Source: Escherichia coli
Lineage (GTDB): Bacteria; Pseudomonadota; Gammaproteobacteria; Enterobacterales; Enterobacteriaceae
Length of the DNA: 64,000 bases
Reading direction: 5' to 3' (one strand)
Assembly: GCF_003334355.1 (NCBI RefSeq)
Contig: NZ_QOWP01000004.1
The stretch's first letter is position 1. The number at the start of each line of letters is the position of its first letter. The position numbers and the translations under genes were made by a program. The notes beneath the pieces are model-generated. The model was not told where the DNA came from, searched no databases, and worked only from the letters and a program-made list of their open reading frames with translations. This document shows, piece after piece, positions 45,342 through 46,962 of this stretch.

Positions 45342-45888
45342 GACTCACTCATTTTTTGAACAAATAGATAATTTTTGCGCAACGGCAGTGAATACAGGAA
45401 AAATCGTTTTGAGCGATTTTATTTATCTTTGATATCGGCTTTATTAATTCATTTAATCAATATATTAGCACTGATTACAATTATACCTTTTTATTATTCT
45501 GTGTCATGATGCTTCCGTTATTAGCCTTTTATCGTCTTGTTTATATTTTTTGGGCCGGCATGATGCCGGCTTTTTTTATGCCTTCATTAATGTGCGCCTG
45601 ATCACACCAGCCGTTTGGCGCAACAATCATTGATACCCCCTATGTTTCCGCTCAACTCATAACATATTGATATACATTTATAATTTTCATGAATATTTAT
45701 ATTTAGAATTCATAATTCTGAATTATATTAAATAGATTAGAAACATTTTGAAATCTTTTAAATACATTTGTTACATGTAATCTTTAAAATAAAATGAACT
45801 TCATAGAATAGTATCCAAATGTGCTTTTTTTTGGATAACGGCACTTATTGATATATTCATGAAGATTATAATCACAAGGGAATACATA

Positions 45889-46962
45889 ATGAAAAGAAAA
45901 GTTCTGGCAATGCTGGTCCCGGCGTTATTAGTTGCTGGCGCAGCAAATGCGGCTGAAATTTATAATAAAGATGGCAATAAAGTTGATTTCTACGGCAAGA
46001 TGGTTGGCGAACGCATCTGGTCAAATACTGATGATAATAACAGCGAAAACGAAGATACCTCCTATGCTCGTTTCGGTGTTAAAGGTGAAACACAAATCAC
46101 CAGCGAACTGACTGGTTTTGGTCAGTTTGAATACAACCTCGACGCCAGCAAGCCCGAAGGCTCTAATCAGGAAAAAACTCGTTTAACCTTCGCAGGTTTG
46201 AAATATAACGAGTTAGGATCTTTCGACTATGGTCGTAACTACGGTGTTGCTTATGATGCCGCAGCTTATACCGATATGTTAGTTGAATGGGGTGGTGATT
46301 CCTGGGCTTCCGCTGACAACTTCATGAACGGTCGTACCAACGGTGTTGCAACCTACCGTAACTCTGATTTCTTTGGTCTGGTTGATGGTCTGAATTTTGC
46401 TGTGCAATATCAAGGTAAGAACAGCAATTGTGGCGTTACTAAACAAAACGGTGATGGCTATGCGTTGTCTGTAGACTACAACATCGAAGGTTTTGGTTTT
46501 GTAGGTGCATATAGCAAATCTGATCGTACTAATGAACAAGCTAGTGACGGCTACGGTGATAACGCTGAAGTGTGGTCATTAGCAGCCAAGTATGATGCAA
46601 ATAATATCTATGCAGCAATGATGTACGGTGAAACCCGCAACATGACCGTTTTGGCTAATGATCATTTTGCAAATAAAACCCAAAACTTTGAAGCTGTTGT
46701 ACAGTATCAGTTCGACTTCGGTTTACGTCCGTCTTTAGGCTACGTATATTCCAAAGGCAAAGATCTTTATGCTCGTGATGGACATAAAGGTGTTGATGCT
46801 GACCGCGTAAATTATATCGAAGTTGGTACCTGGTACTACTTCAATAAGAACATGAACGTCTACACAGCATACAAGTTTAACCTGCTGGATAAAGACGATG
46901 CAGCGATTACCGATGCCGCAACTGATGACCAGTTTGCAGTTGGTATCGTCTACCAGTTCTAA
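45889..46962 (+). CDS. yedS: Intact OmpC/OmpF-family general porin (358 aa incl. signal peptide), YedS-type
   Basis: Signal peptide [21 protein letters not shown], beta-barrel porin sequence ending in C-terminal ...VYQF. Confidence 0.9.

Follow-up and report, generated by a model that had tools for sequence, protein, structure and literature searches.

The window analyzed here, a 64,000-nucleotide stretch of Escherichia coli DNA, contains an uninterrupted porin gene at the yedS locus. We consider it quite probable that this gene is an intact and selectively maintained allele of yedS, an accessory ("quiescent") E. coli porin gene that belongs to a nearly silent, H-NS/StpA-gated module shared with K-12 and whose product adds or replaces a diffusion channel when it is made. 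Because the yedS gene, its intact form included, the neighboring small RNA (sRNA) gene, and the link to H-NS have all been published, these findings will hold little surprise for specialists, and the structure of the allele cassettes described below is a modest extra.

The porin lies in a single open frame at positions 45859 to 46962 of the plus strand (367 amino acids), in which the open reading frame listing gave no stop or frameshift. Within this frame, the ATG at 45889 is likely the start of yedS as read from the sequence, which yields a protein of 357 amino acids, and in 8 of 8 near-identical genomes RefSeq annotates a 1,074-nucleotide coding sequence that begins at the equivalent position. 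We rejected a start at the ATG farther upstream, at 45859, as it lacks a Shine-Dalgarno sequence, would put 10 extra residues in front of the canonical signal peptide, and is passed over by RefSeq in favor of 45889. Database entries also differ in length (405 versus 395 amino acids), for which an alternative upstream start is the probable cause. The original prediction had described an uninterrupted porin that carries a signal peptide and has Phe as its last residue, and both parts held: retranslation of 45889 to 46962 revealed neither a stop nor a frameshift, and the protein begins with a Sec signal peptide that has an A-X-A cleavage site, continues with AEIYNK as the mature N terminus, and ends in VYQF, with the Phe terminal. 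The crystal chains of mature OmpK35 (PDB 5o77) and of 1pho start exactly at the residue that aligns with AEIYNK of YedS, and the YQF ending supplies the C-terminal aromatic residue of such porins. All features are listed in Table 1.

Table 1. Features of the yedS locus in the window (positions are those of the window; strand as + or -, with a dot where none applies)
Feature	Position	Strand	Remarks
drpB (yedR), divergent left neighbor bounding the intergenic region	44958-45239	-	RefSeq has a 282-nt drpB at the equivalent position; ATG 45239 is the corrected start (M22)
Candidate CRP site, taTGTGAtaaaagTCACAttt	45297-45317	.	Exact match to the K-12 in vitro CRP footprint given for yedR (PMC12871828)
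rseX, Hfq-binding sRNA gene, co-oriented with yedS	45488-45577	+	97.7 bits to Rfam RF01401 over the whole model (gathering score 50; E=1.4e-13)
rseX intrinsic terminator, GGGCCGGCATGATGCCGGCTT then T run	45552-45580	+	Terminator scan; same hairpin as at the 3' end of RF01401
Candidate CRP site, reverse complement of ggTGTGAtcaggcGCACAtta	45588-45608	.	Same sequence as the CRP footprint given for yedS in K-12 (PMC12871828); ~280 nt before the yedS ATG; putative regulatory role
Extremely AT-rich core, presumed yedS promoter and 5' UTR, presumed H-NS/StpA target	45640-45888	+	22.1% GC; 97-100% identical in all allele classes, K-12 included
Shine-Dalgarno AAGGGAA for the 45889 start	45876-45882	+	Direct sequence reading; 6 nt upstream of the ATG
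yedS CDS, intact general-diffusion porin	45889-46962 (stop codon included)	+	357 aa
Signal peptide, 21 aa	45889-45951	+	100% identical across all E. coli allele classes
Hypervariable "cassette," mature-protein coding part	~45977 to ~46921	+	Sliding-window identity 15-83%; both flanks 95-100%
Codon 181, TGT (Cys), external loop L4	46429-46431	+	Arg in nearly all relatives
yedS intrinsic terminator	47005-47041	+	12-bp stem then T run; 95-100% conserved in all alleles

The position of the porin identifies it as yedS, with the gene order drpB/yedR-rseX-porin-hchA and flanks that are 95-100% identical between alleles. The same order was found in K-12 and six other E. coli genomes. Upstream of the porin frame, the 517 bp from 45342 to 45858 have a GC content of 29.4% against a mean of 49.1% for the window; only 0.11% of 517-bp windows are as GC poor, and all of the lowest-GC windows in the 64 kb fall at 45342-45858, confirming the strong AT-richness that had been noted there. 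The view of this region as an AT-rich promoter needed correction in one respect, in that the region is not promoter DNA only: it holds a complete rseX gene with its terminator, and two stretches of it have the sequence of CRP footprints reported in K-12. rseX and yedS lie 311 nucleotides apart. All E. coli yedS alleles sampled are preceded by rseX, and E. fergusonii has it as well; in this sample, which contained no Salmonella, we found it only in Escherichia. Over approximately 547 bp, the yedS upstream region is identical to that of K-12 at 542/548 positions (98.9%). The rseX-plus-promoter module is conserved, so regulatory findings made in K-12 probably transfer to the window strain.

The sigma-70-like elements upstream of yedS at 45702-45729 and 45768-45795 do no more than match the consensus, and a promoter scan of this region returned 7 matches versus 7.3 in shuffled sequence, which is no excess. 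Half-site look-alikes for OmpR occur at 45740 (GAAACA) and 45770 (GTTACA) and are an anecdotal lead. Local alignment of the upstream regions of yedS and ompC did not score above shuffled sequence, with 29% of shuffles scoring as high or higher.

The case for silencing draws on K-12, in which RseX is undetectable in the wild type but is expressed, along with "surrounding areas," once hns or both hns and stpA are mutated (PMC8313858). The direct H-NS data of that study concern rseX, not the yedS promoter itself, and its supplements do not mention yedS. In the window, the high-affinity H-NS 10-mer (TCGATAAATT-like) occurs upstream of yedS at three sites with at most two mismatches, versus 1.65 expected from composition (p ~0.27). 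With no enrichment of the 10-mer above what composition predicts, AT-richness is all that the sequence itself offers as evidence for H-NS. Conditional expression of yedS via H-NS, as had been proposed from this AT-richness, is plausible in view of the derepression seen in K-12, whose upstream DNA is 98.9% identical. Silencing may be partial, because mRNA of "yedS (ompS1)" is detectable in K-12 arrays, where it decreased 2.5-fold upon sigmaE induction in the manner of ompC, ompF, and phoE (PMC2731931), and because the window has the two sites that match CRP footprints of K-12.

These same array measurements and the conservation of both CRP footprint sites, along with an H-NS motif no more frequent than composition predicts, would also fit a gene that is not silenced, with appreciable yedS transcription from an ordinary regulated promoter (for example, one dependent on CRP or OmpR) and with the AT-richness of a typical divergent intergenic region that contains an sRNA gene. 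We regard this reading as unlikely in view of the 22% GC core within the lowest-GC stretch of the 64 kb, the silence of rseX in wild-type K-12 and the derepression of its region in hns/stpA mutants, and the precedents of OmpS1 and ompN described below, which favor silencing; also against it are an upstream region that bears no significant similarity to that of ompC and OmpR-box look-alikes that are anecdotal.

For the reading that we prefer, a quiescent but usable accessory porin, yedS would be driven from a regulatory module that is common to K-12 nearly base for base, comprising the AT-rich intergenic region with RseX first and then the yedS promoter and leader. This module would most likely be held nearly silent by H-NS/StpA under laboratory conditions and would open only conditionally, upon antisilencing, envelope or antibiotic stress, or regulatory mutation. 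Control of YedS by MicF has reportedly been described, with regulation through MarA and MicF, and posttranscriptional control by MicF and, as the response to sigmaE induction suggests, by sigmaE-dependent sRNAs may act further on the porin. Once made, YedS would add or substitute a diffusion channel and thereby alter the permeability of the outer membrane, including that to carbapenems. Pairing predictions with RNAduplex and dinucleotide shuffles gave z=-0.75 for RseX-yedS and z=+0.79 for MicF-yedS; the known RseX-ompC pair gave z=+0.23, so these predictions have no discriminating power.

Comparison with known structures placed YedS among the general-diffusion porins. Its closest PDB match was OmpK35 (9hn1; E=2.6e-150, residues 1-357) out of 48 porin chains matched, followed in the ranking by PhoE, OmpF, OmpK36, and OmpC, and the clusters homologous to YedS carry PF00267 and PF13609. 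The AlphaFold2 model is a 16-strand barrel of moderate confidence (pLDDT 71, pTM 0.72) in which L3 is poorly modeled. The L3 constriction-loop motif itself, VEWGGD, is identical to that of OmpK35 (a PEFGG-type motif). In alignment with OmpK35, PhoE, and OmpF, K16 (in DFYGK), the Arg residues in YAR, KTRL, and NGR, the Asp in TDM, and the Glu in VEW are all conserved; residue numbering follows OmpF. The alignments thus show that the basic and acidic residues corresponding to the pore lining are retained, predicting a charged constriction, and alignments and model together show YedS as a predicted classical 16-stranded general-diffusion porin of the OmpF/OmpK35/PhoE/OmpC family that is exported via its 21-residue signal peptide. 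No NCBIfam cutoff was passed within the set NF007446, NF007544, and NF007841, with scores of 450.2 versus 583 for OmpF, 431.4 versus 484 for the OmpC subfamily, and 422.6 versus 599 for PhoE. By these scores, YedS of the window is a distinct porin and not an ortholog of OmpF, OmpC, or PhoE.

Several known systems resemble the one described here. Klebsiella OmpK35 and E. coli OmpF (the 9hn1, 5o77, and 2omf family) are the best structural relatives of YedS, with conserved pore-lining charges and similar length, but they differ from yedS in locus and regulation, and YedS falls below the OmpF equivalog cutoff. Salmonella OmpS1 is a low-expression accessory porin that is silenced by H-NS/StpA, derepressed by LeuO, and dependent on OmpR (PMC4264507). 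Its link to yedS is at the level of names: yedS is equated with ompS1 (PMC2731931) and is called "outer membrane protein S1" in one annotation, which belongs to the K-12-type lineage and not to the window type. No Salmonella sequence was among the best 120 matches listed in either of our homolog searches. Both micC and ompN are repressed by H-NS and by sigmaE (PMC5745476). In micC-ompN and micF-ompC, a porin gene adjoins the gene for an sRNA that represses a different major porin, which parallels the placement of rseX, H-NS repressed and directed against OmpC and OmpA, beside yedS. However, rseX is co-oriented with yedS, upstream of it, and equipped with its own terminator, whereas the micC-ompN and micF-ompC pairs are divergent, and any joint regulation of rseX and yedS is putative.

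The relevance to outer-membrane permeability that the original prediction raised has a counterpart in the literature. Warner et al. (2013, Antimicrob Agents Chemother 57:1935; PMC3623324) are cited for an "active" YedS in clinical E. coli and for its bearing on the permeation of carbapenems. The clinical case reportedly involves the same locus with an intact, translatable yedS in a non-K-12 strain; the barrel of the window may differ from the clinical one by up to ~40%. Accessory porins affect the entry of beta-lactams, especially carbapenems, into cells that lack OmpF and OmpC. An intact yedS would accordingly offer an additional way in, or an additional target for loss, which models based on K-12 leave out.

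The description of yedS as a fragmented pseudogene in K-12 proved correct, but the window does not hold the intact form of the K-12 gene. In BW25113, yedS carries the pseudogene annotation "frameshifted; internal stop," and our translation of this copy located a TAG stop at codon 161 as well as a frameshift, which together leave three fragments. K-12 yedS (yedS_1/2/3, b1964-b1966) has its flanks, rseX, and the signal peptide in common with the window. In contrast, the barrel of the window is only 61% identical to that of repaired K-12 YedS and falls in another NCBIfam class; repaired K-12 YedS has 397 amino acids, compared to 357 in the window, and intact relatives of the K-12 type pass the OmpC-subfamily cutoff (P0156, 545 bits), whereas window YedS leans toward OmpF/PhoE. 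These sequence comparisons show that the window barrel belongs to an allelic lineage other than that of K-12, one that leans toward OmpK35/OmpF.

Identity between the window barrel and other E. coli alleles ranged from 61 to 69%. Across the E. coli alleles sampled, deep divergence was confined to ~45977-46921, and the regulatory region, rseX, the signal peptide, and the terminator were 95-100% conserved. Among the five allele classes compared, external loops were 30.5% identical and strands 71%. This cassette pattern is consistent with recombinational exchange of barrels between conserved flanks. Each allele class sampled includes intact copies. Besides K-12, with its stop and frameshift, yedS is frameshifted in O157:H7 and O104:H4, and pseudogenization is independent in these three strains. 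As a separate point on the origin of divergent alleles, we rejected descent from a tandem paralog: the E. fergusonii locus has two porins, but the second of these shows 54-63% identity to each of the alleles, and its signal peptide is NmpC-like.

Outside E. coli, the window barrel is 80-85% identical to syntenic porins, with E. fergusonii closest at 85% and Citrobacter and Enterobacter at 80%. All three of these taxa have the vsr-dcm-yedJ-(drpB)-porin context, and by this synteny the locus is ancestral. Because the relatives share this chromosomal context and the closest is E. fergusonii, the window type looks vertically inherited, and the more derived forms would be the OmpC-like types of K-12 and UR21. 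Against the E. fergusonii, Citrobacter, and Enterobacter orthologs, dN/dS of yedS was 0.06-0.12, with 0.02-0.05 in the barrel core. In the loops, dN/dS was 0.11-0.51 and never >1, with dS saturated for distant pairs, so this measure does not demonstrate diversifying selection on the loops. The low dN/dS of the gene, its intactness in 8/8 sampled carriers of the window type, and the presence of the window barrel at >=95% identity in ~742/5426 complete genomes suggest that YedS is maintained by selection.

We judge it improbable that the window barrel is foreign DNA recently imported from another enterobacterial genus via the conserved flanks in place of a native yedS. The barrel is indeed closer to Citrobacter/Enterobacter porins than to other E. 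coli alleles, the boundaries of divergence at ~45977 and ~46921 are sharp, and the coding sequence has a GC content of 42.7% versus ~49% for the window mean. However, the relatives in Citrobacter, Enterobacter, and E. fergusonii occupy the same chromosomal context, with the E. fergusonii porin being the closest, and there is no near-identical foreign donor at the nucleotide level, with synonymous differences versus Citrobacter/Enterobacter being saturated (pS ~0.70). An import would concern only the origin of the barrel and is compatible with our main explanation of its function.

Very unlikely, in our assessment, is a cryptic gene on its way out, with a frame left intact here by chance, a porin never usefully expressed, and a locus decaying as in K-12: the separate lesions in K-12, O157:H7, and O104:H4, the neighboring rseX that is undetectable in wild-type K-12, and the loss of rseX from some lineages (PMC3318445) would suit such decay, but the low dN/dS over long divergence, lowest in the barrel core, the intact copies in 8/8 carriers and in every allele class sampled, the 95-100% conservation of the regulatory region, signal peptide, and terminator across alleles, and the clinical isolate reported to use YedS all speak against it.

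A selectively maintained, quiescent yedS also allows a broader and more tentative proposal. Overproduced RseX represses OmpC and OmpA. Possibly, though we would not yet favor it, the at least five barrel lineages (two OmpC-like and three OmpF/PhoE-leaning) represent a long-lived cassette polymorphism on one fixed H-NS-gated module, with barrels swapped by recombination between two invariant parts, one on the 5' side (rseX, AT-rich promoter, and signal peptide) and the other at the 3' end (terminator included). With RseX lowering OmpC and OmpA, the locus might then act as a "porin-swap" switch, in which desilencing removes the major porins and installs a strain-specific replacement, and this switch would be fully functional in the window strain. 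If true, strong natural selection (by phage, colicins, antibody, or antibiotics) would be acting on a porin whose gene is silent under laboratory conditions.

In practical terms, the name "yedS" spans several proteins with no more than 60-70% identity among them, and the yedS allele should be checked before results from one strain, or probes and antibodies derived from K-12, are transferred to another strain. The exact YedS protein of the window is already present in public databases.

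Re-translation of the porin gene bore out the original prediction of an uninterrupted reading frame with a signal peptide and a C-terminal Phe. The ATG at 45889 is the sensible yedS start, with AAGGGAA preceding it, and gives the 357-aa YedS porin (the window protein) a canonical signal peptide; the protein ends in ...VYQF. RefSeq annotates a 1074-nt yedS coding sequence from the equivalent position in 8/8 near-identical genomes, and the mature crystal chain of OmpK35 starts precisely at AEIYNK when aligned to the window protein. The surrounding gene order is vsr-dcm-yedJ-drpB(yedR)-yedS-hchA-hprS. 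Also as predicted, the K-12 locus is broken, being annotated as a pseudogene ("frameshifted; internal stop") whose translation is interrupted by a TAG (codon 161) and a single frameshift. Between yedS and hchA, RefSeq further places a hypothetical protein of 64 aa (WP_001402296.1) in window-type genomes; the one at this position in UR21-type genomes is different and has 136 aa (3546-3956 of comparison locus L008).

Features of the yedS region and related sites in window coordinates
Feature	Position	Strand	Description
Low-GC cluster	22831-24400		<36% GC in 517-bp windows
Conserved 5' segment	44958-45976		drpB, rseX, AT-rich region, signal peptide
CRP footprint 21-mer	45297-45317		unchanged from K-12
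AT-rich region	45342-45858		517 bp, 29.4% GC
IS1B site equivalent	45445-45453		isolate ECO11
Sigma-70-like match	45507-45480	-	ATGACA-16-TATAAT, 11/12
rseX, complete	45488-45577	+	Rfam scan, 97.7 bits (gathering score 50), E=1.4e-13
rseX terminator	45552-45580		own hairpin and T-run
CRP footprint 21-mer	45588-45608		unchanged from K-12
AT-rich core	45640-45888		22% GC
Open frame	45859..46962	+	single ORF, no stop or frameshift
AAGGGAA	45876-45882		precedes ATG 45889
Cassette	45977-46921		mature-protein coding part differing between alleles
Codon 181	46429-46431		TGT, Cys
WP_001402296.1	~47102-47296	-	64-aa hypothetical protein
Low-GC cluster	53191-53800		<36% GC in 517-bp windows

The closest solved structure to the window protein was Klebsiella OmpK35 (9hn1, E=2.6e-150; 5o77), followed by 5o78 (deposited as phosphoporin PhoE), E. 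coli OmpF (3hw9), and then Salmonella OmpF, E. coli PhoE (1pho), OmpK36, and OmpC. Because its NCBIfam scores for OmpF (450 bits; cutoff 583), the OmpC subfamily (431; cutoff 484), and PhoE (423; cutoff 599) all fell below the cutoffs, the window protein is a member of this family yet an ortholog of none of the three. An AlphaFold model from a 20-sequence alignment gave a 16-strand barrel (pLDDT 71, pTM 0.72). The L3 motif VEWGGD has the OmpK35 form, and under OmpF residue numbering every residue that aligns with the basic cluster lining the pore or with the acidic pair of L3 is conserved. Comparison with the orthologs at the syntenic loci of E. fergusonii, Citrobacter, and Enterobacter gave a dN/dS of 0.06-0.08; values were 0.02-0.04 for the core and, wherever estimable, 0.11-0.14 for the loops. 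The structure matches, conserved pore residues, and low dN/dS together indicate, at the level of sequence, a maintained, functional-looking general-diffusion porin. A lone Cys lies at codon 181 in external loop L4, where other carriers have CGT (Arg) and the mature chains of 20 aligned homologs contain no other Cys. Strain PSS-12 (WP_087899681.1) has the same variant, which is present on 21 public contigs, so it is real and sequencing error is excluded.

All observations in the original prediction were thus confirmed. Of its interpretation, intactness, the K-12 contrast, and AT-richness stood, but rseX had been missed upstream, and the implied equivalence to a lesion-free K-12 gene was wrong: a conceptual K-12 YedS with stop and frameshift mended (397 aa) shares only 61% identity with the window protein. 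Sampled megablast matches revealed at least five barrel classes at the locus, with approximate frequencies among 5426 complete genomes.

Barrel classes at the E. coli yedS locus (state as seen in sampled genomes)
Class	Length (aa)	Identity to window protein	State	Genomes
Window type	357		intact in sampled genomes	about 742, about 14% (>=95% identity)
ST2350-like variant	371	90%	intact; O104:H4 frameshifted	about 600
S1-ESP/E272 type	352	69%	intact	about 1166
K-12/O157 type	395-397	61%	pseudogene in K-12, O157; intact in many other strains	about 1660 (K-12-like family)
UR21 type	387	64%	intact	380

Two types, K-12 and UR21, score above the OmpC-subfamily cutoff, while the three other classes and the other-genus orthologs lean toward OmpF/PhoE and pass no NCBIfam cutoff, which explains why PGAP names some alleles "porin OmpC" and others plain "porin." In sliding-window comparisons, all alleles were 95-100% identical over the conserved 5' segment and again from ~46922 through the terminator to hchA, and identity fell to 15-83% in the cassette between them. 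When the five classes were compared pairwise on the AlphaFold model, identity averaged 100% for the signal peptide, 71% for strands, 72% for periplasmic turns, 72.5% for L3, and 30.5% for the other external loops. In O104:H4 (L006 1747-3703), IS30 and other transposase remnants follow the frameshifted yedS; in O157:H7 (L007 1118-1419), the annotation marks drpB as well as yedS as frameshifted.

The finding of an intact yedS is already known, since the exact protein is deposited (21 contigs), the allele occurs in ~14% of genomes, and the biology, including gene function and the H-NS link of the neighboring rseX, is published. The sole mildly new angle is a cassette-like polymorphism joined to a regulatory module that stays fixed. 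The examined literature passages mentioning yedS contained no treatment of YedS allelic diversity, and "yeds" appeared in no title or abstract of the papers that use the word, about half of which are unrelated to E. coli yedS. In one report, yedS-yedR intergenic variation has served as a host-source marker (PMC11267920).

Porins 80-85% identical to the window protein lie directly after vsr-dcm-yedJ in Citrobacter, Enterobacter hormaechei, and E. fergusonii, the last also carrying drpB. With these relatives in the same place, the locus is therefore ancestral, and the window type appears to be its vertically inherited version. An rseX gene preceded every E. coli allele (92-98 bits) and was also present in E. 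fergusonii (69 bits); none was found at the Citrobacter and Enterobacter loci. In E. fergusonii, the interval between the yedS ortholog and hchA (L013 6663-9688) contains two genes that E. coli lacks, one for a second porin of 369 aa with an NmpC-like signal peptide and one of the TrkH family; we rejected the tandem porins as the source of the divergent alleles, as the second one is no closer to any of these alleles than to the others. A K-12-type protein labeled E. albertii by NCBI (label unconfirmed) sits in a yedS locus on a metagenomic contig. In Citrobacter (L010 6241-8823), two tRNA genes and a phage-type integrase immediately 3' of the syntenic porin make this site appear to be an integration hotspot in that genus.

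The predicted extreme AT-richness upstream held, the region being the lowest-GC stretch of its size in the 64 kb (49.1% GC overall); two further low-GC clusters occur in the window. Its description as a promoter was incomplete, because it holds a complete rseX with terminator, co-oriented with yedS and separated by 248 nt from the drpB start and by 311 nt from the yedS ATG downstream of it. What was described as a 500-bp AT-rich promoter therefore has several parts: first the leader of drpB, then rseX with its promoter and terminator, and finally ~310 nt of yedS promoter/leader. RseX is an Hfq-dependent sRNA whose overproduction lowers OmpA and OmpC (PMC7648144; PMC3617542). Two 21-mers, the second just past the rseX terminator, match K-12 in vitro CRP footprints listed for yedR and yedS (PMC12871828). 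The best sigma-70-like match in the region lies antisense inside rseX, pointing toward drpB, and could be a drpB promoter overlapping rseX.

The original view that yedS is expressed conditionally is probably right. Over the 547 bp upstream, identity to K-12 is 542/548, so K-12 regulatory data should transfer. Warner 2013 is said to have linked YedS to MarA/MicF. In K-12, RseX is undetectable in the wild type, appears in Δhns, and is stronger in hns/stpA, and "RseX and surrounding areas" are de-repressed (PMC8313858). Precedents with the same pattern are Salmonella OmpS1, a quiescent porin under H-NS/StpA silencing that LeuO relieves (PMC4264507), and E. coli micC-ompN, both repressed by H-NS and sigmaE (PMC5745476). 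SigmaE induction lowers "yedS (ompS1)" mRNA 2.5-fold, as ompC, ompF, phoE, and ompN also drop (PMC2731931). Upstream of yedS, the H-NS 10-mer was not enriched over base composition, promoter-like matches did not outnumber those in shuffled sequence, and OmpR-box look-alikes were not significant; sRNA-duplex predictions lacked power, since even RseX-ompC failed. AT-richness is thus the one sequence feature supporting silencing.

An IS1B has inserted between drpB and rseX in the 99.9% identical urinary isolate ECO11 (L024, NZ_CP090331.1), duplicating 9 bp of target 35-43 bp 5' of the rseX +1 and leaving yedS intact. This arrangement is reminiscent of the H-NS-silenced bgl operon, which IS insertion activates, and the IS1B could have inactivated the rseX promoter or, alternatively, freed rseX and yedS from silencing.
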